Shown: positions 3,123 through 28,615, counted from the stretch's first letter. The stretch: DNA of 64,000 bases from Vicinamibacteria bacterium (GCA_041481445.1 JBGPBV010000015.1:11062-75061), one strand, 5' to 3'. The notes: generated from the letters alone by a model not told the origin. Numbers and translations: made by a program.

Positions 3123-3129
3123 CGAACGT

Positions 3130-5010: not shown

Positions 5011-5019
5011 GCGCGCCGC

Positions 5020-11275: not shown

Positions 11276-12381
11276 TGGCCACTCGCCTCGACTTCCGCCG
11301 GCGCCCGGCGCCCGAGAGCGCCCGCTTGCGCGTGGCCATGGTGGCGCCGTCCCTGGAGATCCTGGGCGGCCAGGGGGTCCAGGCGCAGGCGCTGGCCCAG
11401 GCCCTGGCCGCCGACGGCCACGTCGTGGACTTCGTCCCCATCAACCCCAGGTTCCCGCGCGGGTTGCGGGGGCTCCGCCGGCTCCCGTACGCCCGCACGA
11501 TCCTGAACCAGGCCCTCTACCTCCCCAGCCTCGCCCGGCTTCGTCGCGCGGACGCCGTCCACGCCTTCTCCGCCTCGTACTGGTCGTTCCTGCTCGCGCC
11601 GGCGCCCGCCATGCTGGTCGGACGGCTGATGCGGAAGCGCGTCATCCTGAACTATCGGAGCGGGGAGGCCGAAGACCATCTCACCTGGGGGATCCTGGTC
11701 CATCCCTGGCTGCGGCTGGCGCACGAGATCGTGGTCCCTTCGGAGTATCTCCGGGGCGTCTTCGCCCGTCACGGTTACGAGGTACGGGTGATCCGCAACG
11801 TGGTGGACACCTCGCGGTTCCGCTATCGCGAGCGCGCGCCGTTGCGGCCCCGGCTGGTTTCCACGCGGAACCTCGAGCCCTATTACCGCGTGGACGTCAC
11901 CGTGCAGGCCTTCGGGCTCGTCAAGGCGCGATACCCGGAGGCGACCCTGACCGTCGTGGGATACGGAAGCGAGGAAGAGAAGCTCCGGCGCCTGGCCGAC
12001 TCCCTCGGCACCGGTGGCATCCGCTTCGTGGGAAGGGCGGAGCGCCCGGCGTTGCCGGGCCTCTATGACGAGCACGACATCTTCGTCAATTCCTCCGTGG
12101 TCGACAACCAGCCCGTGTCGGTGCTGGAGGCCTTTGCCGCGGGACTGCCGGTCGTCTCGACGGCCACCGGCGACATCGGGGCGATGGTCCGTCAAGGGGA
12201 CACCGGTCTCCTCGTGCCCCCGCGGGACCCCTCCGCCACCGCGGCGGCGATCACCGACCTGCTGGAGAGGCCCGATCGAGCGCGGCGGATGGCGCGGCAG
12301 GCACGACAGGAGGTGGAGGAGTACGCGTGGCCCGCCGTGCGTAGCCAGTGGGCGGCGGTCTACGGGGCGAGGCCGTGGTGA
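11275..12381 (+). CDS. Glycosyltransferase family 4
   Basis: ATGA overlap with the upstream stop. C-terminal SVLEAFAAGLPVVSTATGDIGAMV typical of GT4. Confidence 0.75.
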   Translation: MATRLDFRRRPAPESARLRVAMVAPSLEILGGQGVQAQALAQALAADGHVVDFVPINPRFPRGLRGLRRLPYARTILNQALYLPSLARLRRADAVHAFSASYWSFLLAPAPAMLVGRLMRKRVILNYRSGEAEDHLTWGILVHPWLRLAHEIVVPSEYLRGVFARHGYEVRVIRNVVDTSRFRYRERAPLRPRLVSTRNLEPYYRVDVTVQAFGLVKARYPEATLTVVGYGSEEEKLRRLADSLGTGGIRFVGRAERPALPGLYDEHDIFVNSSVVDNQPVSVLEAFAAGLPVVSTATGDIGAMVRQGDTGLLVPPRDPSATAAAITDLLERPDRARRMARQARQEVEEYAWPAVRSQWAAVYGARPW

Positions 12382-12532
12382 GAGGAGCGGGATGCCGGCT
12401 CTTCGACGAGCTCGCGCGCGAGCCGATGATCGCGTCCTTCACGGCCTGGCTGACGACCTTGGCAATCTAGCGCCAATCGGCAAGCGCCCCCGCCCGCGGG
12501 GCGTCCAATATTCACCTTCCAATGCGCGTCCC

Positions 12533-12557
12533 TGTTCGCCGATGTTCCGAGCGAACA
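12533..12557. promoter_or_regulatory. Perfect 7-bp inverted repeat (TGTTCGC-N11-GCGAACA) in the 5' leader of the downstream operon
   Basis: Seen directly in the 200-nt intergenic region. Ends about 25 nt before the ATG at 12583, which has AGGAG 6 nt upstream. Confidence 0.25.
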
Positions 12558-12582
12558 GCACGGTACCGCGAAAGGAGCGACG

Positions 12583-13269
12583 ATGACTTCAGGAGCTATT
12601 GGTGTTGTGAAGTCGAACGAATCGAAGATCGCGTCAATCCAAGGGTACATAGACCGGGCGATCGACGATCTTCTCGCGTCGCTCCGCCAGCCCGGACAGC
12701 TGTCCGCGGAGGAGCGGCGCGGAATCATCGCCCGCTACACGGCGGTGCTCGAGGGGAATTTCATCTACTGGATGACCGGCGCCTACATCTCGGTCGGGTC
12801 GGACGAGGCCCGCGCCAAGATCATGGACAATCTGCGCGAAGAAGTGCGCGACTGTCATCCCGGGATGATGCGACGGTTCGCCATTGCCGCCCACGCCATT
12901 CCGACCGATGCGGATGCGCAGGCCGTCTATCGCAACCTGATGAACGTTCGCTTGTTCATCGGACGACTGTCGGCGGTGCCGATCGTGGTGACGATGGCCT
13001 TCTTCGAAGGCTTCATCCAGCGGTTCATGTCCTATCTTGCCGAGCTCGCCCAGCGCCAGGGCTCGGCCGAGATGGAATACACGGACGTCCATGGCGTTTG
13101 TGACATCACCCATACCCAAGAGCTCTTCCGGGCGCTGGAAGCGGAGATGGTGCTCGTGCACTCCTTGCCCGAGAAGGAGATCTTCGAAGGAGTCGAGCTC
13201 CTTCGGACCCTGATCCAGAGCATCGTCGTCGACAACGAGACCGCTCGTGAGATGCGGACGCCGCAATGA
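12583..13269 (+). CDS. Heme-oxygenase-like diiron enzyme (HDO; iron-containing redox enzyme family, PqqC/TenA-like fold)
   Basis: 228 aa. Contains the HDO metal-ligand signature H-x3-D-x2-H (HGVCDITH) plus upstream Glu/His (EEVRDCH, LEGNFIYW). Size similar to CADD-type HDOs. Confidence 0.7.
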   Translation: MTSGAIGVVKSNESKIASIQGYIDRAIDDLLASLRQPGQLSAEERRGIIARYTAVLEGNFIYWMTGAYISVGSDEARAKIMDNLREEVRDCHPGMMRRFAIAAHAIPTDADAQAVYRNLMNVRLFIGRLSAVPIVVTMAFFEGFIQRFMSYLAELAQRQGSAEMEYTDVHGVCDITHTQELFRALEAEMVLVHSLPEKEIFEGVELLRTLIQSIVVDNETAREMRTPQ

Positions 13270-13550
13270 GCGGCGAGGAAACCATGTCAGTCAAGGCAAC
13301 CGTGATTTCGGAGATTCAGCGGATTGCAGAGGACGACAGCAAGAGTCTGCCTCCTCTGACCGACGACCTGGTCTTGCTCGATTCGGGGCTCGACTCGCTC
13401 GGCATCGCCATCCTCGTGGCTCGGCTCGAAGAGACATTGGGATTCGATCCGTTCACCGAAACCGACGACATTGCCTATCCGGTGACGCTGGGTGACTTCA
13501 TCAGGTTCTATGAACACGCCGCCGAATCCCATGGCGTCGATTCGAGATAG
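13266..13550 (+). CDS. Acyl/peptidyl carrier protein
   Basis: 94 aa. Phosphopantetheine-attachment motif LDSGLDSLGIAILVARLEE. ATGA-type overlap with the HDO stop. Confidence 0.75.
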   Translation: MSGEETMSVKATVISEIQRIAEDDSKSLPPLTDDLVLLDSGLDSLGIAILVARLEETLGFDPFTETDDIAYPVTLGDFIRFYEHAAESHGVDSR

Positions 13551-14913
13551 GCTGGGTAGCCCGCCGGAGGGCCCGGAGCGCTTCCTGTGGGGTGCCACGG
13601 CCAGCGTTCGTCTCGGCCACCGTCTCGACGGCACGGGCCTCCGCGGCCGGGTGGCGGAGCTCGCCCGGCGGTCGGTTCTGATCGCCACTCGGGATCAGTT
13701 CGCCACGGCATTGGCGCTCATCGAGCTGGACGGAATTGCCCGCCGCCTGGTCATCTGCACACCTGACCTGCCGCCCGAGCATCTTCCCGCCGTCGTAGCC
13801 AAAGCGGGCGTGGATGCGATCGTGTCGGATCGCGATGGCGGCCATGACGCATTGGGCGTTCCCCTGCGGGTTCTCTGCAACGGCACCGTCATGCCAGCCA
13901 AAGAGACGCCGGTCACGTGCTGCAGAACGGAGTGGGTGCTCCTCACCTCCGGCACCACCGGGGCGCCCAAAATGCTCGTTCACAGCTTCGCCAGCTTGAC
14001 GGCGCCCATCGGCAGCGCCCTGGGGCAGCGCGCCGACGTCGTGTGGGGCACGTTCTACGACATCCGGCGGTATGGGGGGCTCCAGATCTTTCTCCGGGCC
14101 GTCCTGGGCCCCGGTTCCTTCGTGCTTTCCGGCGCCGGCGAGCCGACGGGAGATCATCTCGTGCGGCTGGGCGCGCATGGGGCGACGCACGTTTCGGGGA
14201 CCCCCTCGCATTGGCGTCGTGCCCTGATGAGCCCGGACGCCCGTGCGATCGCGCCGCGCTACATCCGCCTATCCGGAGAAATCGCGGACCAGGGGATCCT
14301 GAACGCTCTCCATTCGTTCTACCCGCAGGCCAGCGTCGGCCATGCCTTCGCCTCCACGGAGGCCGGCGTGGGATTCGAAGTCAACGATGGTCTCGAGGGG
14401 TTTCCGGCGAGCATGGTCGGCGCGCCCGGCGACGTGCAGATCAAGGTCGTCGAAGGTTCGCTGCGCATCCGTTCCGCGCGGAATGCCGTCCGCTATGTCG
14501 GCGATGACGACTCCACGCTCACCGATGACGAAGGCTTCGTCGACACCGGCGACATGGTGGAACGCCGCGGCGACCGGTACTACTTCCTCGGTCGAAGGAG
14601 CGGCATCATCAACGTCGGAGGATTGAAGGTCTACCCGGAGGAAGTCGAGGCGGCGATCAACCGACACCCGGCGGTGCGCATGTCGATGGTGCGGTCCCGG
14701 AGAAGTCCCATTACCGGTTCCCTCGTCGCCGCCGACGTCGTCTTGAAGGGAGAGCCCGATTCGAGCGGCGCCGCTGGCGAGATGGTGGACTTCAAGCGCG
14801 AGATCCTCCAGATCTGTCACGACCGCCTGGCCCCCCACAAGATTCCGGCGACCATCCGTTTCGTTCCTGCCCTGGAGATTGCCGCCGCCGGCAAGCTGGC
14901 CCGTCATGCGTAG
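13510..14913 (+). CDS. ANL-superfamily adenylating enzyme (acyl- or aminoacyl-carrier-protein ligase)
   Basis: Core motifs LLTSGTTGAPK (A3), FASTEAG (A5), GDMVERRGDRYYFLGRRSGIINVGGLKVYPEEVE (A7/A8), terminal GK. Start ambiguous between Met codons at 13510 and 13531; it overlaps the ACP 3' end. Confidence 0.8.
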   Translation: MNTPPNPMASIRDRLGSPPEGPERFLWGATASVRLGHRLDGTGLRGRVAELARRSVLIATRDQFATALALIELDGIARRLVICTPDLPPEHLPAVVAKAGVDAIVSDRDGGHDALGVPLRVLCNGTVMPAKETPVTCCRTEWVLLTSGTTGAPKMLVHSFASLTAPIGSALGQRADVVWGTFYDIRRYGGLQIFLRAVLGPGSFVLSGAGEPTGDHLVRLGAHGATHVSGTPSHWRRALMSPDARAIAPRYIRLSGEIADQGILNALHSFYPQASVGHAFASTEAGVGFEVNDGLEGFPASMVGAPGDVQIKVVEGSLRIRSARNAVRYVGDDDSTLTDDEGFVDTGDMVERRGDRYYFLGRRSGIINVGGLKVYPEEVEAAINRHPAVRMSMVRSRRSPITGSLVAADVVLKGEPDSSGAAGEMVDFKREILQICHDRLAPHKIPATIRFVPALEIAAAGKLARHA

Positions 14914-15640
14914 GGTGATCGTGACGGGCGGAAGCCGGGGCCTGGGTCTGGGGATCGTCCGCCGGCTCACCGCCGAGGGCTACTGCGCCGTCGCCGTCGC
15001 GCGGCAGATGAACGATCAGCTCGCCTCGACGATCGAACGCGCGGAGCGGTCGCGTTCGGGGTCGCTCCATTTCATGCCGTTCGATCTCGGAGACGTGCAG
15101 GAGATACCGAACTTCGTCAAGAAGCTGCGGAAGGATTTCGGCCCGATCTACGGGCTCGTCAACAACGCCGCGCTGGGCTCGGAGGGCGCGCTGGCCCTCA
15201 TGCACAATGCGCAAATCGAGCGCCTGATTCGCCTGAATACGCTCTCGCCAATCATCCTGACCAAATACGTGGTCCGCCACATGATGGCGGACGGCGGCGG
15301 CCGCGTCGTCAACGTCGCGTCGATCGTTGGCTTCACGGGATACAGCGGCCTCTCGGTCTACAGCGCGACGAAAGCGTCCTTGATTGGATTCACGCGATCG
15401 CTGGCGCGCGAGGTCGGCCGGCGCGGCGTCAACGTGAACGCGGTCGCGCCCGGATTCCTGGACACGGAGATGACCCAGGGCCTGGACGGCGAGCGCCGCG
15501 AGCAGGTGGCGCGCCGGAGCGCGCTGGGCCGGTTTCCCGAAGTGGACGACGTCGCCGACGCGGTCGAGTTTCTGCTCGGATCGAAGGCCAAGAGCATCAG
15601 CGGGACCGTGCTCACCGTGGATGCGGGCAGCACGGCGTGA
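14906..15640 (+). CDS. Short-chain dehydrogenase/reductase (FabG-like)
   Basis: VIVTGGSRGLG Rossmann motif, NNAA, and catalytic S...YSATK. Overlaps the ligase stop. Confidence 0.8.
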   Translation: MRRVIVTGGSRGLGLGIVRRLTAEGYCAVAVARQMNDQLASTIERAERSRSGSLHFMPFDLGDVQEIPNFVKKLRKDFGPIYGLVNNAALGSEGALALMHNAQIERLIRLNTLSPIILTKYVVRHMMADGGGRVVNVASIVGFTGYSGLSVYSATKASLIGFTRSLAREVGRRGVNVNAVAPGFLDTEMTQGLDGERREQVARRSALGRFPEVDDVADAVEFLLGSKAKSISGTVLTVDAGSTA

Positions 15641-15665
15641 ACGGTCGTATCAAGGTGCTCGAGCC

Positions 15666-17522
15666 ATGACCGTCAACCAGGCCGAGACGGCCGTGCGACC
15701 TGCCCCCGGCAAACCGTCGTCGGCCAAGGCCTGGTCGCGCGCCCTCGAGCTGACCGCACCGATCGTCCGACGTCCCGATCGCATCTTGCCGACCGTCATC
15801 GAGGAGCTCGCGGAGAAGCTCGGGGACGCGCCGGCCCTCCTCTCGGACGGCGAGTGCCTGACCTATCGTGCCCTCGCGGAACGATCGACGCGATATGCCC
15901 GGTGGGCGATCGAGCAGGAGCTCGCCAAGGGCGACGCCGTCTGCCTCTTGATGCCGAACCGCCCTGAGTACATGGCCATCTGGCTCGGGATCACGCGCGT
16001 CGGCGGCGTCGTCGCGCTGCTCAACACGAATCTCGCCGGGCCCTCGCTCGCGCATTGCATCAACATCGCCGCCCCCCGACATCTCATCGTGGCCGTGGAG
16101 CTCATCGATCGGGTGACCGCCCTGCGGCAAGACCTCGCCGGTGCGCCGAAGATCTGGGTTCACGGCGCCGGTCACGACCACTGTCCGCGCATCGACCACG
16201 AAATCGAACGATACCGCGGCGACACGCTGCCGGAGGCCGAGCGCCGGCCCGTGACCATCGACGATCGCGCGCTCTACATCTACACCTCCGGCACGACCGG
16301 GCTGCCCAAGGCCGCCAACGTGAGCCATGCCCGGGTGATGCAATGGAGCCACTGGTTCGCCGGGCTGATGGACACTCGCTCGAGCGACCGGATGTACACC
16401 TGCCTGCCGATGTATCACAGCGTCGGCGGCGTGCTCGCGACGGGTGCGGTCCTGGTGGGCGGCGGCTCGGTGGTGATCCGCGAAACATTCTCTGGACACC
16501 ACTTCTGGAGTGACGTCGTCCGCTGGGACTGCACGCTGTTCCAGTACATCGGTGAGCTGTGCCGGTACCTGCTGCATGCCGAGCCGCACCCGCCCGAGAG
16601 GGATCACCGGATCAGGATGTGTTGCGGCAACGGGCTGAGGCCTGACGTCTGGAACTCCTTCAAGGAACGGTTTCGCATTCCGCAGATCCTGGAGTTCTAC
16701 GCGGCGACGGAGGGCAACGTCTCGCTGGTCAATGTGGAAGGCAGGCCCGGCGCCATCGGCCGCGTCCCGCTGTTCCTGGCCCACCGATTTCCGGCGACGC
16801 TCGTGAAATACGACGCGGAGGCGGACGCGCCCGTGCGCGACGCGCGCGGATTCTGCGTTCGCTGTGCGCCGAACGAAGTGGGCGAAGCGATCGGCCAGCT
16901 TCTGAGGGACCGGTCGAACGTTGGCAGCCGGTTCGAGGGCTACACGGACGAGGAAGCCTCGGAGAACAAGATCCTGCGCAATGTGGTGGAGCCGGGAGAC
17001 GCGTGGTTCCGGACGGGCGACCTGATGCGAAAGGACGAGCACGGCTATTTCTATTTCGTCGATCGGATTGGCGACACCTTCCGTTGGAAGGGCGAGAACG
17101 TCGCCACCTCCGAGGTCTCGGAGGCGATCTGCGGGTTTCCGGGAATCAGGGAGGCCAACGTCTACGGCGTGGCCATTCCGGGCACCGACGGCCGGGCGGG
17201 CATGGCGACCATCGTCACCGACGATGGGCTGGATCTCGCCGCCTTCCGGACGCACCTGGTCGACCGCCTCCCCGAGTACGCGCGGCCGGTATTCCTGCGC
17301 GTGCGGGACGACTTGGAAGTGACCGCCACCTTCAAGCACACAAAGAGCGCTTTGGTGCGCGAAGGTTACGACCCGGTCGCAATCGCAGACGCCATCTATT
17401 TCGACGATCGCGAACGCCAGGCGTTCGTCCGGCTCGACAAGGCGCTTCACGACCGCATCCAGAGCGGCCAGATCCGCCCTGACCGCCGTCCGAATGCGGC
17501 ACGCGGCAGCAAGACAGGCTGA
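15666..17522 (+). CDS. Long-chain fatty-acid-CoA ligase (FATP/very-long-chain acyl-CoA synthetase-like)
   Basis: YIYTSGTTGLPKAANVSH, YAATEGN, WFRTGDLMRKDEHGYFYFVDRIGDTFRWKGENVATSEVSE. About 620 aa, typical of the FATP family. Confidence 0.8.
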   Translation: MTVNQAETAVRPAPGKPSSAKAWSRALELTAPIVRRPDRILPTVIEELAEKLGDAPALLSDGECLTYRALAERSTRYARWAIEQELAKGDAVCLLMPNRPEYMAIWLGITRVGGVVALLNTNLAGPSLAHCINIAAPRHLIVAVELIDRVTALRQDLAGAPKIWVHGAGHDHCPRIDHEIERYRGDTLPEAERRPVTIDDRALYIYTSGTTGLPKAANVSHARVMQWSHWFAGLMDTRSSDRMYTCLPMYHSVGGVLATGAVLVGGGSVVIRETFSGHHFWSDVVRWDCTLFQYIGELCRYLLHAEPHPPERDHRIRMCCGNGLRPDVWNSFKERFRIPQILEFYAATEGNVSLVNVEGRPGAIGRVPLFLAHRFPATLVKYDAEADAPVRDARGFCVRCAPNEVGEAIGQLLRDRSNVGSRFEGYTDEEASENKILRNVVEPGDAWFRTGDLMRKDEHGYFYFVDRIGDTFRWKGENVATSEVSEAICGFPGIREANVYGVAIPGTDGRAGMATIVTDDGLDLAAFRTHLVDRLPEYARPVFLRVRDDLEVTATFKHTKSALVREGYDPVAIADAIYFDDRERQAFVRLDKALHDRIQSGQIRPDRRPNAARGSKTG

Positions 17523-17527
17523 GGTGC

Positions 17528-18922
17528 GTGAGCTCACCCATGGCGTTTGATCAAATCCGGAGTGTCGTGGCCACGCTCGAGTCCGACATCGCGAGCGGCC
17601 CCATCGTCCCGACGGTGGCGCCGCACGAGATTCGCAACTACCTCGGCTCGCGCTATGACTTCACGAAGCCAATGGCACTCGACGACGTCACCGCGGACGT
17701 CGAAGGGATGATGCGGAGGTGGCAGGTGCAGGTCACCCATCCGCGTTACTTCGGCCTCTTCAACCCGAGCGTGACCCTGGCGTCGGTGATCGCGGACACG
17801 CTGGTCGCCATGTACAACCCGCAACTGGCGACCTGGCGTACCTCGCCGGCGGCGAACGAGATCGAACGTCACACCCTTGCCTGGCTGACGGGCAAGTTCG
17901 GCCTGCCCGCCGCCACGATTGCCAGCTTCACGACCGGCGGAGCCGAGGCGAACCTCTCGGCGGTGATCGTGGCATTGACGCGGGCCTTCCCGGAGTACGG
18001 CGAAGGCGGGCTTCGGAGCCTGTCCGCGTCGCCGACCATCTACCTGACCCACGAAGCCCACGACTCGTTCCACAAGATCGCGCACATGACGGGGATCGGG
18101 CGCCGGGCGCTGCGGACGGTCGCGACCGACCGCGATCTGAAGATGGATCTCGTGGATCTGGCCAGACGAGTCGCCGAGGATCGCCGAAACGGGCTCGCGC
18201 CCGTCATGGTCGTCGGTACTGCCGGGACCACGGCGGCGGGCGCGATCGATCCCCTGCCGGATCTGGCTTGCTTCTGCCGGTCGGAGGAGCTGTGGCTTCA
18301 CGTCGACGCGGCGTGGGGGGGCGCCGCCATCCTCTCCCCACGCCTCCGCGGTCATCTCGCCGGCATCGAGGCTGCCGACTCGATCACGTGCGACGCGCAT
18401 AAATGGTTCTCGGTGCCCATGGGTGCCGGGATGTTCTTCTGCCGGCATCCCGACGCGGTTGGCGAGGCTTTCCGCGCGCAGACCTCCTACATGCCGGGAA
18501 GGACGGCGGGGCCGGTGGCCGATCCCTACACCACCTCGGTTCAGTGGTCGCGCCGCTTCATCGGCTTGAAGCTGTTTCTTGCCCTCGCCCAGCACGGCGA
18601 GTCCGGGTACGTCGAGATGATCGAGCACCAGGCTCGCATGGGTGACGTGCTGCGGGAGTCGGTCGAGCGTGCGGGGTGGCGCATCGTCAACCGCACGCCC
18701 CTGCCCCTCGTGTGCTTCACCCGGGATGGCCTCGTCGCCCGCCGCTTCCTCGCCGCGCTTCACGAGCGTCAGATCGCATGGATGTCGGAAGTACGCCTGG
18801 GCGACGAAGCGCCGGTCGTGCGTGCGTGTGTCACGAGTTTCCGGACAAGCCAGGCCGACATCGAGTGGGTGGTGCGCGAGATGAGCCGGCTCGCTTTGCA
18901 GGAGTCCGAGGTCAGGGCATGA
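17528..18922 (+). CDS. Group II PLP-dependent amino-acid decarboxylase
   Basis: 464 aa. PLP-lysine motif SITCDAHKWF and the fold-type I decarboxylase pattern. 6-nt gap from the ligase, 4-nt overlap with the next gene. Confidence 0.8.
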   Translation: MSSPMAFDQIRSVVATLESDIASGPIVPTVAPHEIRNYLGSRYDFTKPMALDDVTADVEGMMRRWQVQVTHPRYFGLFNPSVTLASVIADTLVAMYNPQLATWRTSPAANEIERHTLAWLTGKFGLPAATIASFTTGGAEANLSAVIVALTRAFPEYGEGGLRSLSASPTIYLTHEAHDSFHKIAHMTGIGRRALRTVATDRDLKMDLVDLARRVAEDRRNGLAPVMVVGTAGTTAAGAIDPLPDLACFCRSEELWLHVDAAWGGAAILSPRLRGHLAGIEAADSITCDAHKWFSVPMGAGMFFCRHPDAVGEAFRAQTSYMPGRTAGPVADPYTTSVQWSRRFIGLKLFLALAQHGESGYVEMIEHQARMGDVLRESVERAGWRIVNRTPLPLVCFTRDGLVARRFLAALHERQIAWMSEVRLGDEAPVVRACVTSFRTSQADIEWVVREMSRLALQESEVRA

Positions 18923-20217
18923 GACGCGAGACCATCGCCATCCATGGCGGCTACGAGGTCGATCCAACGACGAAGGCCGTTGCCGTGCCGATCTATCAGA
19001 CCGTCGCCTATGCGTTCGACAACGCCGACCATGGGGCGGCCCTGTTCAATCTCGAGGTCGAGGGATATCGCTACACCCGCATCGGCAACCCGACGACGGC
19101 GGTGCTGGAGCGGCGCGTGGCCGCCCTCGAAGGAGGACTGGAAGCGTTGTGTGTGTGCTCGGGACAGGCGGCGGTCCACTACGCGACGCTCAACGTGACC
19201 GGTCTGGGCAGCAATATCGTCTCCGTTCCACAGCTCTACGGCACCACCCACACCCTGTTCGCCCACCTTCTGCCCAATCAGGGAGTCACCGTCCGCTTCG
19301 CGGCGTCGGATCGTCCCGACGCCATCGAGAAGCTGATCGACGACCAGACGCGCGCCGTCTTCTGCGAAAGCGTCGGCAATCCCGCGGGGAACATCTGCGA
19401 CATCGAGGCCCTGGCTCGCGTGGCCCACGAGCACGGCGTGCCCCTCATCGTCGACAACACGGTCGCCACCCCGATTCTGCTGCGGCCGATCGAATACGGC
19501 GCCGACGTCGTGGTGCATTCGCTCACGAAGTTCATGGGCGGGCACGGCACGACGCTCGGCGGCGCCATCGTCGACAGCGGCCGGTTTCCCTGGAAGGAGC
19601 ACGCGCGACGCTTCCCGATGTTCAGCCGGCCGGACCCGTCGTACCACGACCTGGTCTATACCGACCATTTCAAGGAGGCGGCGTACATCGGGCGCTGCCG
19701 CAGCGTGTATCAGCGGACGACGGGATCGGTGCTGTCGCCCCTCAGCGCGTTCCTGCTGCTGCAAGGCATCGAGACGGTTGCCCTGCGGGTCGGCCGCCAT
19801 GTGGAGAACGGCAGGGCGGTGGCGGAATTCCTGGGCAAGGATCGGCGAGTGGAGTGGGTCAACTACGCCGGCTTCCCGGAGAATGCCTTTCATGCGCTCG
19901 CCCTGAAGTATCTCGGCGGCCGGGCCTGTTCTCTCATGACCTTCGGAGTCAAGGGAGGATTCGAAGCCGGCCAGAAGTTCTACGACGCGCTCAAGCTGAT
20001 CAAGCGCCTCGTCAATCTGGGCGACGCCAAGTCATTGGCCTGCCATCCCGCGTCCACCACGCATCGACAAATGTCCGCGGACGAGCAACGCCGCGCCGGC
20101 GTGACGCCGGAAACGATCCGGCTCAGCGTCGGCATCGAACACATCGACGACATCATCGGCGACCTGGACCAGGCGCTCGATGCGATGGAATCAGCTCCGC
20201 AAGGTGAGGTCCCATGA
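18919..20217 (+). CDS. MetY/MetZ-family PLP enzyme (O-acyl-homoserine sulfhydrylase / gamma-replacement family)
   Basis: MRRETIAIHGGYEVDP..., YTRIGNPT, and HSLTKFMGGHGTTLGGAIVD with the PLP lysine. ATG overlaps the decarboxylase stop. Confidence 0.85.
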   Translation: MRRETIAIHGGYEVDPTTKAVAVPIYQTVAYAFDNADHGAALFNLEVEGYRYTRIGNPTTAVLERRVAALEGGLEALCVCSGQAAVHYATLNVTGLGSNIVSVPQLYGTTHTLFAHLLPNQGVTVRFAASDRPDAIEKLIDDQTRAVFCESVGNPAGNICDIEALARVAHEHGVPLIVDNTVATPILLRPIEYGADVVVHSLTKFMGGHGTTLGGAIVDSGRFPWKEHARRFPMFSRPDPSYHDLVYTDHFKEAAYIGRCRSVYQRTTGSVLSPLSAFLLLQGIETVALRVGRHVENGRAVAEFLGKDRRVEWVNYAGFPENAFHALALKYLGGRACSLMTFGVKGGFEAGQKFYDALKLIKRLVNLGDAKSLACHPASTTHRQMSADEQRRAGVTPETIRLSVGIEHIDDIIGDLDQALDAMESAPQGEVP

Positions 20218-21254
20218 TCACCGAACGCCGATCATCTTCAGGTCTCGCGACGTTGGGGCCGGCGCGGCGTGGGCGCGGCCAGGCGCCGACGGGATTTCGC
20301 GGATCCGATCCGAATTGCATCGACATCGGGCTCATGAACAACATGCCTGATGCGGCGCTCGATGCCACGGAACGGCAGTTCCGCGCGCTGCTCGGAGCGG
20401 CGGCGAAGGACATCGTCGTACGCCTGACCCTCTACACGCTGCCGGAGGTTCCTCGCACCGAGTTCGGCCGGCGGCAGGTGAGCAGCTATTCCAACTTCGA
20501 TGAGCTGTGGGACCGCCATCACGACGGTCTCATCGTGACCGGGACGGAGCCGCGGGCGGCGGATCTCAAGGACGAGCCGTTCTGGGGCAGCCTGACCCGC
20601 GTTCTGGAGTGGGCCGAGGGCAACACGCACTCGACGATCCTCTCTTGTCTGGCCGCGCACGCGGGCATTCTCCACATCGATGGCATCGCGAGACGCCCGC
20701 TAGGCGACAAGCGCTTCGGCGTGTTCGAGTGTGTGCGCGTTTCGGATCATCCGCTGACGGCCGCCGCTCCGAGTCGCCTGCAGATGCCGCATTCCCGGTG
20801 GAACGAGATCCCCGAGGAAGCCCTGCTGGCGTGCGGCTATCGTGTCCTCACGCGGTCAGAAGACGCGGGGGTCGACGCCTTCGTGAAGCAGCGCAAGAGC
20901 TTGTTCGTCTTCTTCCAGGGTCATCCCGAATATGAGGCCACTACGTTGCTGCTGGAATATCGCCGGGATATCGGGCGGTTCCTCAGGGGAGAGAGAGACA
21001 CATATCCTCCCCTGCCGCAAGGCTACTTCGACGAAGAAACGGTGCACGCACTGACCACCCTGCGAGAGCGAGCACTCTCGGACCGCCGCGAGGAGCTGCT
21101 TGCCGAGTTCCCGATTGCCATGGCGGCCGGCAAGGTCACGAACAACTGGCGATCGACCGCGGAAGGCCTCTATCGCAATTGGTTGCTGTATATCTGCGCG
21201 GCAAAGAAGCAAAGCTGCGCGCGAGATGGAAGTCGCAAACGGCAATCGGTGTGA
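20214..21254 (+). CDS. MetA-family homoserine O-acyltransferase (O-succinyl/acetyl)
   Basis: [22 protein letters not shown], and [11 protein letters not shown] motifs of the MetA family. ATGA overlap with the MetY-like gene. Confidence 0.8.
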
Positions 21255-22408
21255 GAGGGAGAGTGCCGGTGATATGGGGCCTGTCGACCTTGCTCGTCAC
21301 CGGGCTTCTCGCCGCCTGTTCCAGCCCTGAAGCCAAGGTCGCCGGCACTTGGAGCCCGAAGGCCGCTGCCGCCTACCTCGATGAACGAGCAGACTGGTGG
21401 ATGGGATGGCAGGGGGCGGCCCGTGACCATGGGACTTGTTGCGTCTCATGCCATACGGCGCTGCCGTACGCCCTCTCTCGCGCCGCCCTCCGGAAGGCGC
21501 TGGCGGATGACGCTCTTTCCAACAACGAACGGAGACTCCTGGACAACGTCACGAAGCGTGTGCGCCTTTGGAAAGAGGTCGGACCCTACTACGGCGATCG
21601 TGACGGCAGCGCTTCCAAAGCCACCGAATCCCGCGGAACCGAAGCCGTCCTCAATGCCTTGATCCTCGTCTACCATGACGCTCAGAACGGCCGATTCAGC
21701 GAGGATACGCGAACCTCACTGGACAACATGTGGGCGCAGCAGGAGACGACGGGCGATCAAGGGGGTGCGTGGCCCTGGCTTCAGTTCGGTTTGAGCCCCT
21801 GGGAAGGAAGAGACTCCCAGTACTATGGAGCCGCACTTGCCGCGCTCGCGGTGGGCACGGCTCCAGGGCATTACCGTTCGAGCGCCGCGATACAGGGCAA
21901 CGTGGAGCGCTTGCGCTCGTATCTGGACCGCGAATACCCAAAGCAGCCTTTATCCAATCGCGTGGTCCTTCTGTGGGCTTCGACGAAATGGTCAGGGCTC
22001 CTCGAGAAAGAACGTGAAGAGTCTCTCGTCGCCGAACTTCTCGGGGAGCAGCGATCAGACGGAGGCTGGAGCCTCTCTTCACTGGCCAGGTCGCGGAGAG
22101 GTTCAACTCTGCGTTCCTATGTTCGGTCGTGGATACGAGACGATCGGACGCTGGTGGAGACGAAGAGTGACGGCTGTGCCACCGGCCTGGTCGCGTTCGT
22201 CCTGTTGGAGACCGACATGCCTCGCGAGAATGTCCAGCTTCAGGAGGGTCTATCCTGGTTGGTGGCCAATCAGGACAAAACCGAAGGCTCTTGGCCGGCC
22301 TACTCTCTCAACCGGCGACGCGATCCATCCTCCAATATCGGTCGCTTCATGAGTGACGCGGCGACGGGCTACGCCGTGCTCGCGCTCACTCGAGCCAACC
22401 GTTTTTGA
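21251..22408 (+). CDS. Lipoprotein with prenyltransferase/terpene-cyclase-like QW repeats and a single CXXCH motif
   Basis: Signal peptide with lipobox (LLAAC). QW-type motifs [34 protein letters not shown] at 21437-21454. Confidence 0.55.
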
Positions 22409-22496
22409 ATCAACGCGAGCGTTGTCCGGAGCCCCCGGCGCCGAGGACAACCTACGGCGTCGCGCGGGGACCACAGCCGGCCTGAAGGAGGAGGGA

Positions 22497-23888
22497 ATGT
22501 TGCGGACCGCCGCCGAGCTCGTCAGGGCCGATCAGGAGCATCTGATCCACCCGCTGCACCATCCCGTCGACAACTCGAACACGATCGTCTACGTCCGTGG
22601 GCGCGGCGTCACCGTCCAGGACATTGACGGGCACGAGTACATGGACGGGCTCTCCGGCCTCTGGAACGTGAACGTGGGACACGGTCGCGCCGAGCTGGCG
22701 GAGGCGGCCGCGGCGCAGATGAAAGAGCTCGCCTACTTCTCCGGCTTCGTGGGCTCGTCGAACATCCCGTCGATCACGTTGGCGGAACGCCTCCTGGAAA
22801 TCACCGACCACACCATGCAGGCGGTCTTTCTGACGTCGGGCGGCGCGGAGGCGAACGAGTCGGCATTCAAGACCGCGCGCTTCTTCTGGAAAGCGCGCGG
22901 CAAGCCCGACAAGGTGAAGATCATTGCCCGCGACCAGGCATACCACGGGCTCACGCTCCAGACGATGAGCGCCACCGGGATGGGCGGCGACTACTGGAAG
23001 ATGTTCGAGCCGCGCGTGCCGGGGTTCCTTCACATCCAGACGTGTTATCCGTATCGATACCAGGGGGCGAAGCCCGGCGAGAGCGTGGGCCAGGCCGCAG
23101 CCAGGGAGCTGGAGGAGGCAATCCTCCGCGAGGGCCCCGACACGATTGCCGCCTTCGTCGGAGAGCCAATCCACGGCGCGGGTGGCGTGTTCTACCCGAC
23201 CGACGACTACTGGCCGCGCGTGCGCGAAGTCTGCACGCGCCATGACGTGCTGCTGATCGACGACGAGATCATCACCGGCTTCTGCCGCACCGGACGCTGG
23301 TTCGGCCTCTCGCATTGGAACGTGACGCCGGACATCCTGTCCTTCGCGAAGGGGGTCACGTCCGGTTACCTGCCGCTCGGCGGGATCATGGTGACCCGCG
23401 CGATCAAGGAGGTCATGGACTCGGTCAAGCCCGACGACCGGTGGATGCATGCGTACACGAACTCGGGCCACCCCACCTGTTGCGCGGTCGCGGTGAAGAA
23501 CATCGAGATCCTGCAGCGCGAGCGGCTCTGGGAGAACGCGGCGACGATGGGCCGGCGACTGCAGGCCGGTCTCAAGGCGGCGTTCGGCGATCACCCGAAC
23601 ACGGGCGACATCCGGAGCGGGAAGGGGCTGCTGGCGGCGGTGGAGTTCGTGGAGGATCGAGCGACCAGGAAGAACTTCGCGAAGATCCTGAAGATCGCCG
23701 CGCGCCTCAAGGCCGAGATGATGAAGCGTGGAGTGATCACGCGCACGCGACCCGCGGTCGGTGCCGATCCCGCACCTGGTGACATCCTCTTCTTCGCGCC
23801 CCCACTCGTCGTCACCGAGGCGGAGATCGACCGGTTGGTCAGCGTGGCGCGCGACGCCGTCGAGGTCGTGCTTGGCGCCCCGCGTTAG
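22497..23888 (+). CDS. Class III (omega) aminotransferase
   Basis: GGAGG 7 nt upstream. SGLWNVNVGHGR resembles the omega-TA substrate loop. DDEIITGFCRTGRWFG and the PLP-lysine region SFAKGVTSGYLPLGG. Confidence 0.8.
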   Translation: MLRTAAELVRADQEHLIHPLHHPVDNSNTIVYVRGRGVTVQDIDGHEYMDGLSGLWNVNVGHGRAELAEAAAAQMKELAYFSGFVGSSNIPSITLAERLLEITDHTMQAVFLTSGGAEANESAFKTARFFWKARGKPDKVKIIARDQAYHGLTLQTMSATGMGGDYWKMFEPRVPGFLHIQTCYPYRYQGAKPGESVGQAAARELEEAILREGPDTIAAFVGEPIHGAGGVFYPTDDYWPRVREVCTRHDVLLIDDEIITGFCRTGRWFGLSHWNVTPDILSFAKGVTSGYLPLGGIMVTRAIKEVMDSVKPDDRWMHAYTNSGHPTCCAVAVKNIEILQRERLWENAATMGRRLQAGLKAAFGDHPNTGDIRSGKGLLAAVEFVEDRATRKNFAKILKIAARLKAEMMKRGVITRTRPAVGADPAPGDILFFAPPLVVTEAEIDRLVSVARDAVEVVLGAPR

Positions 23889-23907
23889 TGGCGAGCTTCG
23901 ATCAGCC

Positions 23908-24924
23908 GTGACGATCGACTTCCGGGCGACCACTCCGTGTGAAGCTGCGGCGCTCTCGGACGTCCTGGGACGGATGTTCCAGCCCGCGGGGGCTTCGTTC
24001 CCGGCCGACAAGCACATGGTATGGAAGTACTGGTCGGCCCGCCCAGACTGGGCGGGTTCGCGCAGTTTCACCGCCCGGCATGACGGCGCCATCGTGGCGC
24101 ACGCCGCGGCGTGGCCGGTGCGCGTGTGCGTTCCCGGTCAGGTAGTCCCTGCGGTGCATTTGATCGACTGGGCGGCGGATCCGGAGCATCCAGGAGCGGG
24201 CATCTGGCTCCTGCGGCGGATCGGCGCCAAGGTACCCTTGATGATCGCAACCGGCGGCAGCGAGATCGCGCGGCGTATCCTCCCCGTCATCGGTTTCCGT
24301 CCACACGGCGAGCTTTACAAGTTTGCCCGCCCGGTGCGTCCGCTGCGGCAGGCGTTGACCACGACGGAGAGAAATTGGAGACTCCCTGCGCGATTGCTGC
24401 GGAATACCTTCCGGCGCCTGTCGTCGCCGCTGTCGCTTCCGCGCGGATGGTCGGCACTGCCGCTGGCCCCGGAAGAGGTTCCGCAGGGGTTGTGGCCTCA
24501 GCCTTCTCCCGCCACCGCCGTAACCGCGCGGGACACAGGCTTCTACCGGTATTTCGTGGATTCTCCCTCTACTCGGCACGTGCTGTTCGGCTTGGAGAAG
24601 AGCCGCGAGCTGGTCGGGTACTTCTGTCTCGCTTTCGCGCCGCAGGTGGCGCGCATCGCGGATCTCTGGCTGCCCTCCACGAAGATCGAAGACTGGTGCG
24701 CCGGCTTCCGGACCGCGGCGGTCCTGGCCGCTCGTGAAGAGGGGGTCTGCCAAGTATCGGCCTGGGCCTCGACCGCAGTGGGCAAGGAAGGGCTTTTTCG
24801 CGCCGGCTTCTACCGGCTGCGCGAGCGCGAAGCGGTGAGCCTTTTCGGCGATGACAAGTTCTTGGAGGGGCGGCAGCTGCACGTGCAGATGCTCGACTGT
24901 GATGCCAGTTTCGTGTCCGCCTAG
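23908..24924 (+). CDS. Hypothetical protein (possible GNAT-like acyltransferase)
   Basis: Non-repetitive coding-like composition fills the aminotransferase-to-kinase gap. No confident family match. GTG start assumed. Confidence 0.35.
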   Translation: MTIDFRATTPCEAAALSDVLGRMFQPAGASFPADKHMVWKYWSARPDWAGSRSFTARHDGAIVAHAAAWPVRVCVPGQVVPAVHLIDWAADPEHPGAGIWLLRRIGAKVPLMIATGGSEIARRILPVIGFRPHGELYKFARPVRPLRQALTTTERNWRLPARLLRNTFRRLSSPLSLPRGWSALPLAPEEVPQGLWPQPSPATAVTARDTGFYRYFVDSPSTRHVLFGLEKSRELVGYFCLAFAPQVARIADLWLPSTKIEDWCAGFRTAAVLAAREEGVCQVSAWASTAVGKEGLFRAGFYRLREREAVSLFGDDKFLEGRQLHVQMLDCDASFVSA

Positions 24925-24991
24925 GCTGTGTCCTGCCTGACCCGAGATGCGTGTCGACCGGAACCCTCGTCAACGCAGTGGGGGCCAATGA

Positions 24992-27568
24992 ATGAGCGCC
25001 CGGCGGCTTAGGCGGCGATCGGTCTCGCGCTCGGCGCGGTTGGGTCGGACGCCGCGCCCGGCCGAGCGGCCGGCGCCGGCGCGGCCGCGGCTCGAGGTCT
25101 GGAAGCTGGGCGGGGCGTCGCTCGCCGACGCCAGCGCCGTGCGCCGGGCCGTCGGGCTCGTGCAGAGGCACCCCGGCGACCTCGTCGTCGTCGTCTCCGC
25201 TCTCAAGGGCGTCACCGATGGGCTGCTCGAAGGCGCCCATCGCTCCGCTTCCGGAGACGTGGTTGCGGCCAGCGCCCAGGCGGCGGCGTTCCTGCGCCGG
25301 CACCGCGCGCTCGTCCTGGACCTGGTCGCGCCCGGGCCGGATCGCCGCCGTCTCCTGTCCGAGGCCGACCGGGCGGCCCGCGAGTACCGCGAGATCTGCC
25401 GGGCGGTGGCCACCCTCGGCCACCTCTCGCCCCGGACGAGCGACGTCCTCGTCTGCCGCGGCGAGCGCGTGGCCGCGGCGGTCGTCGCCGCGACGCTCTC
25501 TGCGGCCGGCCGCGCGGCGGCGCGGGTGGACGCGCTCGACGTCGTATCCACCGACGGCCATCATGGCGCGGCGGCCCCGGACCTGGCCGCAACGCGCCGG
25601 CGCGCGCGGAAGGCCCTCCCGGCGCTCCTGCGACAGGGCATTACGCCGATCGTCCCCGGCTTCTTCGGCCGCGCCCCCGACGGGACCGTCGCCACGCTGG
25701 GCCGCGGCGGCACGGACCTGACGGCTACCCTTCTCGGCCGCGTCCTCGGCGCCTCGCGCGTGGTCCTGTGGAAGGGCGTACCGGGCATCCTCACCGCGGA
25801 CCCCGGCCACGTCGCGGATGCGCGGCTCATCCCTCAGCTCCACTACCGCGAGGCGGCGGAGGTCGCGTACTTCGGCGCCAAGGTCCTGCATCCGCGCGCT
25901 CTCATCCCGCTCGACGGGAGCCGGGTGCGGCTCCACGTGCGGTCCTTCCTGAGTCCCGAAGCTCCGGGCACCGAGGTGTCCGCCCGGCGCACGCTGAACC
26001 GCTACCCGGTGAAGGGCCTGGCCGTCGAGGCCTCGCAGGCCCTCGTCACCGTCGCCGGCAAGGGCATGATGGGCATGCCCGGCATCGCCGCCCGCACCTT
26101 CGGCGCGATCCACGGCGAGGGCATCTCCGTCTCGACGATCTTCCAGGCCTCCTCGGAGAACTCGATCGGCTTCACCCTCTCCGAGGGGGACGCGCCGCGG
26201 GCGGTGGAAGCCTTGCGCCGCGTCTTCAAGGACGAGATCGCCTCCGGCCTCATCGACGGCGTGACCGCGCGCCCAGGCGTGGGCGTGGTGGCCGTGGTGG
26301 GAGAAGGCATGGCGGGGACCCCGGGCATCGCCGCCCGCGTGTTTACCGCCCTCGGCGGCGGCGGGGTCAACGTGTTGGCGATCGCCCAGGGCTCCTCCGA
26401 GCGGAACATCACCCTCGTCGTCGATCGCTCACAGCTGGCGGAGGCCGCGCGCCGGATCCACACCACGTTCCAGCTCGCGAAGATCGGCGGCGGGAAGAGC
26501 CCGGAGCCCCCGCGCACCGACGTGGTGCTGCTCGGCTTTGGCCATGTCGGGCGCGCGCTGGCCGCCCTCGCCGCGCGCAACGGCCACGCCGGGGTCAAGG
26601 TGGTGGGGCTCCTCGACCGCTCCGGCTACGTCTTCGATCCGCGGGGACTGTCCCGGTCTCGCCTCCTCAAGCTGGCCCGAGGCAAGGACCGCGGCACGCT
26701 GGTCGCCAACCTCGGCGGCGTGAAGGCGGACGCCGACGCCGCCCTGGCCCACATCGCCAACCATGCGGTGACGCGCCCGGTCGTGGTCGACGTGACGGCG
26801 GAGGAAACGGGCGACCTGCTCCTCAAGGCCGCGGGGCAGGGCTTCGACCTCGTGCTCGCCAACAAGAAGCCGCTGGCGGGACCCTTCGAAGACTACTCGC
26901 GCCTGCGGGCGGCGGTGCAGCGCTCCGGCCGCCGGCTGCGCTTCGAGGCCACGGTGGGCGCGGGGATGCCGATCCTCGACACGCACCTCAAGCTCGTGGA
27001 CAGCGGCGACCGCGTCCTGCGCGTCGAGGGCTGCCTCAGCGGCACCCTGGGCTACGTGCTGTCATCGGTTTCCGAAGGCAAGCCCTTTTCGGCCGCGGTG
27101 CGGGAGGCGGTGGCGCTCGGCTACGCCGAGCCCGATCCACGCGACGACCTCTCGGGCCGCGACGCCGGCCGCAAGGGCCTCATCCTCGGCCGGCTGCTCG
27201 GATACACCGGGCCGCCCCCCGTGGCCGAGGACCTGGTGCCGCCCGCGCTGAGGCAGGTGAAGCTCGACGAGTTCCTGGCGAAGCTCCCTACCCTCGACGA
27301 GGAGTGGCGGCAGCGGGTGGAGCTCGAGAAAAGCCGCGGCCGCGTGCTGCGTTACGTCGTGGTGGCGACACCCCGCAGCGTGCGCGCGCAGCTCGTCGCC
27401 GTGCCCGTCGACTCCGCCGTGGGCGCCCTGAGGGGCACGCGCAACCTCGTGTCCTTCACCACGCGGCGCTACCGGAGAGAGCCCCTCGTCATCACGGGAC
27501 CGGGGGCGGGACCGGAGGTGACGGCGGCCGGGATACTGAACGACCTGCACCATCTGGCGGTCACGTAG
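24992..27568 (+). CDS. Bifunctional aspartokinase / homoserine dehydrogenase
   Basis: LEVWKLGGASLAD aspartokinase N-terminus, two ACT-like regions, then VVLLGFGHVGRAL NAD-binding and homoserine dehydrogenase C-terminal domains. The N-terminal roughly 35 aa are Arg/Pro-rich, so the true start may be downstream. Confidence 0.8.
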   Translation: MSARRLRRRSVSRSARLGRTPRPAERPAPARPRLEVWKLGGASLADASAVRRAVGLVQRHPGDLVVVVSALKGVTDGLLEGAHRSASGDVVAASAQAAAFLRRHRALVLDLVAPGPDRRRLLSEADRAAREYREICRAVATLGHLSPRTSDVLVCRGERVAAAVVAATLSAAGRAAARVDALDVVSTDGHHGAAAPDLAATRRRARKALPALLRQGITPIVPGFFGRAPDGTVATLGRGGTDLTATLLGRVLGASRVVLWKGVPGILTADPGHVADARLIPQLHYREAAEVAYFGAKVLHPRALIPLDGSRVRLHVRSFLSPEAPGTEVSARRTLNRYPVKGLAVEASQALVTVAGKGMMGMPGIAARTFGAIHGEGISVSTIFQASSENSIGFTLSEGDAPRAVEALRRVFKDEIASGLIDGVTARPGVGVVAVVGEGMAGTPGIAARVFTALGGGGVNVLAIAQGSSERNITLVVDRSQLAEAARRIHTTFQLAKIGGGKSPEPPRTDVVLLGFGHVGRALAALAARNGHAGVKVVGLLDRSGYVFDPRGLSRSRLLKLARGKDRGTLVANLGGVKADADAALAHIANHAVTRPVVVDVTAEETGDLLLKAAGQGFDLVLANKKPLAGPFEDYSRLRAAVQRSGRRLRFEATVGAGMPILDTHLKLVDSGDRVLRVEGCLSGTLGYVLSSVSEGKPFSAAVREAVALGYAEPDPRDDLSGRDAGRKGLILGRLLGYTGPPPVAEDLVPPALRQVKLDEFLAKLPTLDEEWRQRVELEKSRGRVLRYVVVATPRSVRAQLVAVPVDSAVGALRGTRNLVSFTTRRYRREPLVITGPGAGPEVTAAGILNDLHHLAVT

Positions 27569-27582
27569 GGCGTTATACGGCC

Positions 27583-28590: not shown

Positions 28591-28615
28591 GCGCAACTCT
28601 GCACGGCGAGCGACC

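Follow-up and report, generated by a model that had tools for sequence, protein, structure and literature searches.

The window analyzed here is a 64,000-nt stretch of DNA from a Vicinamibacteria bacterium (GCA_041481445.1, JBGPBV010000015.1:11062-75061), in which genes for a MetY-like and a MetA-like enzyme directly follow a gene for a group II pyridoxal 5'-phosphate (PLP) decarboxylase (DC). These three genes belong to an eight-gene core that also encodes a predicted heme-oxygenase-like (HO-like) dimetal oxidase (HDO), an acyl carrier protein (ACP), a short adenylate-forming ligase, a short-chain dehydrogenase/reductase (SDR), and a FATP-type acyl-CoA synthetase (FACS). No description of this module was found in full-text searches of the literature, and a review on HDOs and a comparative-genomics paper on Acidobacteria were silent on it. 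The module is widespread in soil bacteria and undescribed, and its building blocks are enzyme families already known.

Gene array and its junctions

The window has approximately 69% GC, and its genes were called from third-position GC content and domain scans. They form a same-strand, nearly gap-free array at 12583-24924, plus a bifunctional aspartate kinase-homoserine dehydrogenase (AK-HSD) gene up to 27568 (Table 1). The only sizeable gap ahead of this array of approximately 12-15 kb lies at 12382-12582 and carries no sigma-70 consensus. No sigma-70-like promoter was found in 12000-28000, and the terminator-like matches in this interval were fewer than in shuffled sequences (4 compared to a mean of 7.5) and all intragenic. 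Between DC, MetY, and MetA, nothing resembling a promoter or terminator was observed; a separate one between 17522 and 18919 had been named in the earlier note on this DNA as evidence against its proposal.

The DC stop codon TGA (18920-18922) overlaps the MetY-like ATG (18919-18921), where the junction reads GTCAGGGCATGAGACGC and also GGCATGAGA. The MetY stop codon TGA (20215-20217) overlaps the MetA-like ATG (20214-20216) in the same manner, and this junction reads GGTCCCATGATCACC and also CCCATGATC. The 4-nt overlaps claimed in the earlier note, at 18919-18922 and at the ATGA of 20214-20217, were exact in the sequence read-out. A Shine-Dalgarno (SD)-like GAGG is located 6-12 nt 5' of both the MetY and MetA ATGs, within the preceding gene in each case. 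The MetY start is backed by homologues, which are likewise 432 aa in length and whose alignments begin at residue 1-5, and the MetA start by its N-terminus, which has the usual length of approximately 35 residues ahead of the NxMP motif.

A 4-nt overlap alone is a frequent feature of tightly packed operons. It is the conservation of the overlap from DC to MetY that goes beyond chance: among homologous loci, this junction was -4 in 39 of 72 and was at most 37 nt in all except three.

Table 1. Features of the array and of its immediate surroundings in the window
Feature	Position	Strand	Remarks
Upstream exopolysaccharide-type genes	1110-12381	+	UDP-sugar dehydrogenase, two XrtA/PEP-CTERM-like amidotransferases, GT2, two GT4
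Intergenic gap, candidate promoter region	12382-12582	+	201 bp; strong SD (AAAGGAG) before the HO-like gene
HO-like dimetal oxidase candidate (HDO), 228 aa	12583-13269	+	PF14518
ACP, 94 aa, GLDSL motif	13266-13550	+	PF00550; start overlaps HDO stop (ATGA)
Short adenylate-forming ligase (AAL), start codon uncertain	13492-14913	+	PF00501/PF13193
FabG-like SDR, probable start ATG 14906	14879-15640	+	PF00106; TIGR01830 196 bits, below cutoff
FATP-type (very-)long-chain acyl-CoA synthetase (FACS)	15621-17522	+	NF006134 767 bits, cutoff 625
Group II PLP decarboxylase (DC)	17528-18922	+	PF00282
MetY-clade PLP gamma-replacement enzyme, 432 aa	18919-20217	+	PF01053, TIGR01326
MetA-type homoserine O-acyltransferase, 346 aa	20214-21254	+	PF04204, NF003776
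Lipoprotein-like protein X, CxxCH motif	21263-22408	+	Without Pfam or NCBIfam match
Class III (omega-)aminotransferase	22497-23888	+	PF00202; best NCBIfam PRK07480/07481, below cutoffs
GNAT-like protein, start inferred	23908-24924	+	Weak Acetyltransf_9 match
Bifunctional AK-HSD	24992-27568	+	PF00696 + ACT + PF00742; follows 67-nt gap
Downstream exopolysaccharide-type genes	27583-31385		GT2 (minus strand), FemAB/CelD-like GNAT, GMC oxidoreductase

Conservation of the eight-gene module

The genomic context of the window MetY was taken from close homologues. Each fetched locus covered 10 kb to either side, and approximately 160 loci were fetched in total. Hundreds of relatives with 88-94% identity to the window MetY were found in Acidobacteriota/Vicinamibacteria metagenome-assembled genomes (MAGs). 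Long contigs with those relatives displayed the same array of 12-13 genes, to which an RCC1-repeat gene was added, and their flanks differed.

Species-representative genomes were scanned with the window DC, which yielded 80 loci at 69-89% identity. Their sources were Vicinamibacterales, Bryobacterales, Terriglobales (among them the isolate Tunturiibacter lichenicola MP8S11), Rokubacteriota, and a small number of MAGs with odd labels. When the window proteins were mapped on these loci, the eight-gene core was found together almost everywhere, with gene orders permuted among loci (MetA-DC-MetY, MetY-MetA-DC, and MetY-DC). A metagenome scan with a variant DC added 80 further loci, which constitute a second deep family. 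Compared to the window, its DC was about 45-55% identical and its MetY 72-81% identical, again with ACP, ligase, SDR, FACS, MetY, and MetA. Among the 64 loci with at least 8 kb on both sides of DC, MetY was present in 62, FACS in 61, and MetA in 59, and 57 loci had the full set of three.

Seven genomes gave two DC loci each. Five of them were comparable, with MetY copies 84-95% identical in four and a near-duplicate pair in one, and in all five every cassette has retained a MetY/MetA pair of its own. The pairwise distances computed for DC, MetY, MetA, and FACS were correlated (Spearman 0.76-0.82), and their trees were congruent. The coupling of the pair with a decarboxylase and two acyl-activating enzymes, as claimed in the earlier note, is that of a conserved, co-diverging module and not a one-genome accident. 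The same claim had overlooked the wider setting, namely the HO-like oxidase, ACP, SDR, downstream AK-HSD, and exopolysaccharide (EPS) locus. It is very likely that the module acts as one functional unit.

In the Rokubacteriota modules, DC and MetY were 82-89% identical to those of the window. Because this level of identity is shared across phyla, the whole module appears to have been horizontally transferred between them. MAGs labelled Actinobacteria, Gammaproteobacteria, and Thermoleophilia (L005, L061, and L076) also carry modules. L061 and L076 nest in acidobacterial/Rokubacteriota clades of the MetY and DC trees, and L005, which is outside the trees, was 89-91% identical to the Vicinamibacteria-type cassette of the window. 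The modules in these three MAGs reflect either mis-binning or recent horizontal transfer.

Judged from loci of 10 kb to either side, an ordinary housekeeping metY-metA pair, merely co-located or co-transcribed with an acyl/decarboxylase cassette, maybe with double duty and without any chemical link to it, is an improbable explanation of this linkage. The pair does have a canonical sequence and scores over family cutoffs, but its linkage persists through order permutation, across phyla, and in two deep module families. While metY-metA/metX pairs are common and the AK-HSD adjacency resembles classical operons such as that of locus L168, some genomes hold two cassettes with an own pair in each, and the clade of module MetYs described below is monophyletic and distinct from classical-operon MetY. 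Likewise, the 88-94% conservation among Vicinamibacteria is typical of core genes, whereas the pair co-diverges with DC and FACS, and its 82-89% cross-phylum identity with Rokubacteriota points to transfer of the whole module.

Enzyme families and a proposed pathway

The MetY-like protein scored 591.9 bits with TIGR01326 (curated cutoff 495.1) and 416 bits with PF01053. It stayed under every equivalog cutoff, with scores of 653 bits for PRK06084 (cutoff 790), 572 for PRK08248 (726), and 525 for PRK07812 (703). Its best solved relatives were the sulfhydrylases 8SF5 and Thermotoga maritima MetY 7KB0 (481 bits), and Fub7 (8ERB) and the Thermus thermophilus O-acetylhomoserine sulfhydrylase (OAHS) matched it at 424 bits. 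Residues were checked in alignments to 7KB0, 8SF5, 2CTZ, and 8ERB and by shared invariant columns. At the active site, which the earlier note had proposed to compare with known enzymes, the PLP and catalytic residues were all kept (Y52/R54, S81-G82-Q83, Y107, E150, N154, D179, S201, K204, and R-SVG) and are canonical. Approximately 14 substitutions are specific to the clade of module MetYs, and several of them adjoin active-site motifs. They included I51R beside Y52/R54, G109T beside Y107, I375C before HPASTTH, H363R, and R21V, and they may be due to another nucleophile or simply to the use of O-succinylhomoserine.

A search of 1.84 billion representatives returned 33,885 MetY relatives, and the nearest full-length sequences fell to 65% and then to 52% identity. 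Of these, P0121 (65%) and one of the sequences at 52% (P0126) were both module-linked, in variant modules of EPS loci. Another 52% representative (P0128, in L168) was located in a classical AK-HSD/MetY/MetX operon. A neighbor-joining (NJ) tree was built from 106 sequences with 100 bootstrap replicates. All module-linked MetYs fell in one clade (bootstrap 91/100), apart from the group of L168, T. maritima MetY, and 8SF5 and also apart from the branch that joins T. thermophilus OAHS with Fub7. P0130 and P0219 were also within the clade, with contexts from fragmentary, frameshifted assemblies. Nesting among housekeeping MetYs, which the earlier note had set against its own proposal, was not seen; the module-linked clade is distinct from classical-operon and characterized MetYs as well as from the Fub7 branch.

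The MetA-like protein scored 410.6 bits with NF003776 (cutoff 358), and the MetA_acetyl and MetA_succinyl models were both far under their cutoffs. Its Cys145/His/Glu triad was invariant in 57 module MetAs. The residue equivalent to G111 of E. coli and E111 of B. cereus, which in known MetAs decides between acetyl and succinyl donors, was Arg in the window and L, R, M, or K across the module MetAs.

DC scored 215 bits with PF00282 and contains the DAHKW PLP-lysine motif. The Tyr of its catalytic loop is kept, since QTSYMPG aligns with the catalytic Tyr of 4RIT, compared to Phe in the aldehyde synthase 6EEQ. Because this Tyr is retained, DC should be a decarboxylase that releases an amine. An aldehyde synthase, which would explain the adjoining aldehyde dehydrogenase (ALDH) gene of some modules, was rejected on account of the same residue. 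DC had no equivalog-level match (RhbB 160 bits, cutoff 900; PanP 139, cutoff 606; MfnA 90, cutoff 299), and its closest structure was an uncharacterized Sphaerobacter enzyme. Readings of DC, transaminase, and ALDH as a gamma-aminobutyrate (GABA) shunt, a 2,4-diaminobutyrate (DABA)/1,3-diaminopropane pathway, or a dimethylsulfoniopropionate (DMSP)-like pathway were not adopted, because the transaminase and ALDH are lineage-specific, seldom co-occur, are without a methyltransferase, and gave only family matches below cutoffs.

The best family matches of DC, the DABA decarboxylase RhbB and PanP, would also fit a reverse order of reactions. DC would first make an amine from another amino acid (for example, a diamine or omega-amino acid), and the MetY-clade enzyme would use this amine as an N-nucleophile, so that a 3-amino-3-carboxypropyl group is attached and a carboxy-polyamine or nicotianamine-like product results. 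Accessory genes for a SpuC-like omega-transaminase and an aminoaldehyde-type ALDH recall polyamine metabolism, but these matches, like those to RhbB and PanP, were all far below cutoffs. One variant has a Lys/Orn-N-hydroxylase-like flavoenzyme and an ATP-grasp ligase, yet no core gene makes a diamine precursor. With known MetY enzymes, amines perform poorly as nucleophiles, and the FATP-type synthetase would be left without a role. Overall, the reverse order is very improbable.

FACS matched human FATP2 structures at 438 bits and is, by this similarity, genuinely FATP-type. For the short ligase, which is presumed to load the ACP, the relatives in the PDB were all distant, namely ACSM2A and benzoate-CoA ligase (approximately 57 bits).

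HDO passed PF14518 weakly (35.2 bits, cutoff 28.9). Its AlphaFold2 (AF2) model had a pLDDT of 72, and the best Foldseek matches were CADD, BesC, UndA, and AetD, all of them HO-like dimetal oxidases, at TM scores of only 0.5-0.6. The residues E57, E86/87, H92, E142, H170, D174, and H177 were invariant, with a CADD-like H-x3-D-x2-H motif. The product of 12583-13269 is thus best regarded as a candidate HO-like dimetal oxidase, and it was present in 51 of 52 long window-type loci.

A protein without a Pfam domain, U224 (L085 9068-9742, minus strand; also L157, L087, L106, L115, and L130), has 2,580 homologues and many invariant His/Asp/Glu residues. Its AF2 model had a pLDDT of 92 and a weak fold resemblance to CADD, PolF, HamA, and TenA, which hints at an HO-like fold. 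U224 was rejected as a divergent homologue of HDO, with no sequence or profile similarity between them (hhalign probability 0.2%). It adjoins DC in some variant modules, occurs in a minority of second-family loci, and is also found outside the module, as in Rhodopila globiformis beside thiolase/ChsH2-like genes. The HO-like oxidase as a universal component of the module was dropped accordingly.

For the whole locus, we tentatively favor, at a little under an even chance, the explanation that metY/metA is integral to a dedicated, mobile biosynthetic module and is not a free-standing methionine operon. Homoserine, for which the adjoining AK-HSD is the likely supplier here, would be O-acylated by the MetA-type enzyme, as its homology and intact triad suggest. 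The MetY-clade enzyme, to judge from its family membership, would swap the O-acyl group at C-gamma and give a gamma-substituted 2-aminobutyrate. DC would then strip the alpha-carboxylate to leave a 3-substituted propylamine, or 3-mercaptopropylamine if the nucleophile is sulfide. The action of DC on the MetY product, as put forward in the earlier note, would be reasonable in view of the gene linkage and the intact catalytic Tyr, and the order MetA, MetY, and then DC has a slightly better than even chance of being correct.

The amine would be joined to acyl units, that is, a long-chain acyl-CoA provided via FACS and a second acyl unit via the branch of short ligase, ACP, and SDR. Tailoring would be performed by the HO-like oxidase and by lineage-specific hydrolases, thioesterases, ALDH, omega-transaminase, acyl-CoA dehydrogenase (ACAD), and P450. 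The outcome would be a lipid or acyl decoration that contains an amine and is often co-made with EPS. In short, the module probably leads from homoserine to an amine-bearing lipid or polysaccharide decoration.

Because the MetY-like protein scores as a bona fide sulfhydrylase, sulfide would be the single most likely nucleophile, giving homocysteine, with a probability that stays short of one half. A non-sulfide nucleophile, CndF/Fub7-like or other, is almost as likely, since MetY and MetA are near-universal in the module, AK-HSD is lineage-specific, and the clade has its own substitutions. The same dedicated module would in this case use a C-nucleophile (such as a 3-oxoacid from FACS, ACP, and SDR) or an O-, N-, or S-nucleophile of its own making, and the resulting non-proteinogenic amino acid would be turned by DC into an unusual amine.

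As an explanation of the whole locus, this non-sulfide version is unlikely. MetY and MetA are kept in 97% and 92% of the long loci, respectively, while their supply gene AK-HSD is lineage-specific, which suggests that what they make is something other than a common metabolite. The MetY clade stands apart (91/100), with substitutions beside active-site motifs, but the new Arg residues could simply mean the use of O-succinyl- instead of O-acetyl-homoserine. Fub7 is a MetY-like sequence capable of C-C gamma-substitution, yet it falls in a different clade. Such enzymes are without a distinguishing sequence signature, and we know of none that is diagnostic for C-C gamma-substitution enzymes of the CndF/Fub7 type. 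Although the FabG-like SDR, together with hydrolases/thioesterases and ACAD-like enzymes, could form a 3-oxoacid and set it free, no core enzyme obviously produces a special small nucleophile, and the MetY-like protein passes the sulfhydrylase subfamily cutoff. A somewhat unlikely history along these lines is that an ancient MetY clade was recruited with its own MetA, DC, FACS, and HO-like oxidase, and that activated homoserine and a non-sulfide, module-derived nucleophile yield a product that is decarboxylated. If this is true, some of the most abundant soil bacteria (Acidobacteriota and Rokubacteriota) would make amine lipids or EPS substituents of a class not known before.

Several points weigh against the explanation by a dedicated module. 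The steps beyond family assignment are drawn from gene linkage, and DC has no close characterized relative from which its substrate could be read. The MetY-like protein is canonical in sequence, with all PLP and catalytic residues conserved, and for this reason it could equally serve general homocysteine synthesis. In Vicinamibacteria, AK-HSD is a close neighbor of the pair, an arrangement shared with classical Met operons. The second module family does not have the HO-like partner throughout, and EPS-type neighbors were found in only 33 of the 78 long loci by a BLAST-based census. The MetY tree is an NJ tree of limited sampling (106 sequences), with genomic context for one non-module representative only; its module clade could partly mirror taxonomy, and one member of this clade, P0219, has a fragmentary context that is not of the module type.

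Acidobacteriota count among the soil bacteria that are most abundant and whose biochemistry is least understood. The module is conserved (70-90% identity across classes), sometimes duplicated, and apparently moving between phyla; therefore, its product may be important for soil life, possibly as a surface lipid or exopolysaccharide modification. If the dedicated-module explanation is true, genes that are automatically annotated as methionine-biosynthesis genes (metY/metA) would represent a separate clade dedicated to another pathway. This matters for metabolic reconstruction and for enzyme discovery, in which catalysts of PLP gamma-replacement are in demand. Experimentally, the module is within reach, with a cultured carrier (T. 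lichenicola) and a core of only eight genes.

Variable neighborhood and comparison with known systems

The association of the module with EPS genes is recurrent, not universal, and the statement that it always lies in EPS loci was unsupported (33 of 78 long loci). In Terriglobales loci and distant variants, the flanking genes were Wzc, Wzx, Wzy, Wza, Bac_transf, and RmlC. In the window, three AsnB-type amidotransferase paralogues (2-487, 2923-5010, and 9098-11275, all on the plus strand) had their best match in the XrtA/PEP-CTERM amidotransferase TIGR03108 at 608-641 bits, below its cutoff of 817. The two GT4 glycosyltransferases best matched TIGR03088, also below cutoff. No exosortase gene was identified in the window, and Terriglobia hydrolases matched the exosortase A system-associated hydrolase 1/2 models weakly (38-78 bits, cutoffs 168-203). 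The open reading frame (ORF) for the UDP-glucose/GDP-mannose dehydrogenase (1110-3122, plus strand) has, as called, an N-terminal extension of approximately 210 aa ahead of its first domain, which may be a start-codon artefact.

The accessory genes differ among lineages. In Terriglobia, two alpha/beta-hydrolases and an aminoaldehyde-type ALDH were located directly 3' of MetA (35 and 28 loci, respectively). In Vicinamibacteria, the accessories were X, the transaminase, the GNAT-like protein, and AK-HSD. The class III aminotransferase was found in Vicinamibacterales and some Bryobacterales loci, and AK-HSD adjoins only Vicinamibacteria-type modules (94-95% identity in L001 and L003). Protein X, directly 3' of MetA, has a lipoprotein-like N-terminus and a CVSCH motif (CxxCH, heme-c-type). 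It was 74-77% identical in other Vicinamibacteria cassettes (L001-L005), and copies with 43-50% identity were observed near some Terriglobia/Bryobacterales modules.

The RCC1-repeat (beta-propeller) gene lies between FACS and DC in L001 (6845-8608), L003 (6740-8608), and L004 (6746-8605). The window is without it, and the spacing from FACS to DC is only 5 nt there. A Terriglobales subtype (L073 13750-14886 and 13 similar loci) is missing the SDR and has a carrier-protein-thioesterase didomain directly 3' of MetA; it co-exists in the same genomes with the SDR/hydrolase/ALDH subtype.

Unbiased clustering of flanking ORFs indicated that ACAD-like proteins, truncated class-II aminoacyl-tRNA synthetase (aaRS)-like proteins, the carrier-protein-thioesterase didomain, and an esterase also recur, along with P450, a luciferase-like monooxygenase, and a membrane O-acyltransferase. 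In the second family, the truncated class-II aaRS-like and ACAD-like genes were neighbors in 15 loci each (L092 13700-14650; L126 12141-13370). The truncated aaRS-like protein has approximately 316 aa and resembles amino acid:carrier-protein ligases. The accessory set is the signature of carrier-protein-based biosynthesis with variable tailoring. The variant modules of P0121 and P0126 contain FACS, Bac_transf, Wzc, DC, a protein of approximately 224-254 aa, MetY, MetA, Wza, and BBP2, and further carry GT4 (L085) or Wzx (L167). One variant module adds a Lys/Orn-N-hydroxylase-like flavin monooxygenase and an ATP-grasp ligase.

Elsewhere in the window, a signaling-dense region (33076-45219 and 49055-52586) encodes histidine kinases and two Ser/Thr kinases (TPR or PD40 propeller). 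The same region contains an FHA-GAF protein, a DUF6689 protein, a Reg_prop/Y_Y_Y hybrid kinase, and an extracytoplasmic function (ECF) sigma factor. A NorB-type nitric-oxide reductase/heme-copper oxidase subunit with a fused cytochrome-c-like domain is encoded at 57300-59580 (minus strand).

Among known systems, the metY and metA/metX genes of direct sulfhydrylation are of the same two families, with conserved catalytic residues and an adjacent, translationally coupled pair. In contrast to them, the window pair is embedded in and co-evolving with an eight-gene acyl/decarboxylase module, and its MetY is in a separate clade, below the equivalog cutoffs, and, in some genomes, duplicated together with the module.

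The fungal PLP enzymes CndF and Fub7 perform gamma-substitution in natural-product pathways (PMC11331486). The window MetY shares with CndF/Fub7 (8ERB) the PLP fold of Cys/Met metabolism, presumably an O-acylhomoserine as electrophile precursor, and a location in a biosynthetic cluster. However, it is bacterial, stands outside the Fub7 branch, and has as its partners a decarboxylase, an ACP, and a synthetase of the FATP type.

The uncharacterized XrtA/PEP-CTERM EPS cassette comprises an acyl-CoA ligase (TIGR03098), an ACP, a PLP decarboxylase (TIGR03099), and hydrolases (TIGR03100/03101). The cassette and, in part of its loci, the module are alike in combining a ligase, an ACP, a PLP decarboxylase, and two alpha/beta-hydrolases within EPS loci, and for both of them the suspected product is of the acyl-amine or lipoamino kind. 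Synthases of N-acyl amino acids have a link to PEP-CTERM/exosortase loci, according to Craig, Cherry & Brady (2011) as cited in PMC11631085. Unlike the cassette, the module has a DC of group II and not of the diaminopimelate (DAP)-decarboxylase type, and the cassette as described is without MetY, MetA, an HO-like oxidase, and a FATP-type synthetase. TIGR03098 matched only FACS in the module (126 bits, cutoff 592), and TIGR03099 had no match in it.

Amine-forming PLP enzymes take part in capsule/EPS decoration, and the DABA decarboxylases RhbB/Ddc act in siderophore pathways. The RhbB/Ddc pathways resemble the pathway proposed for the module in that a group II decarboxylase makes a small amine, which is then acylated or ligated. 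They differ in the route to the precursor, which in the module would come via MetA/MetY and not from an aspartate-semialdehyde transaminase, and the module DC scored only 160 bits with RhbB (cutoff 900).

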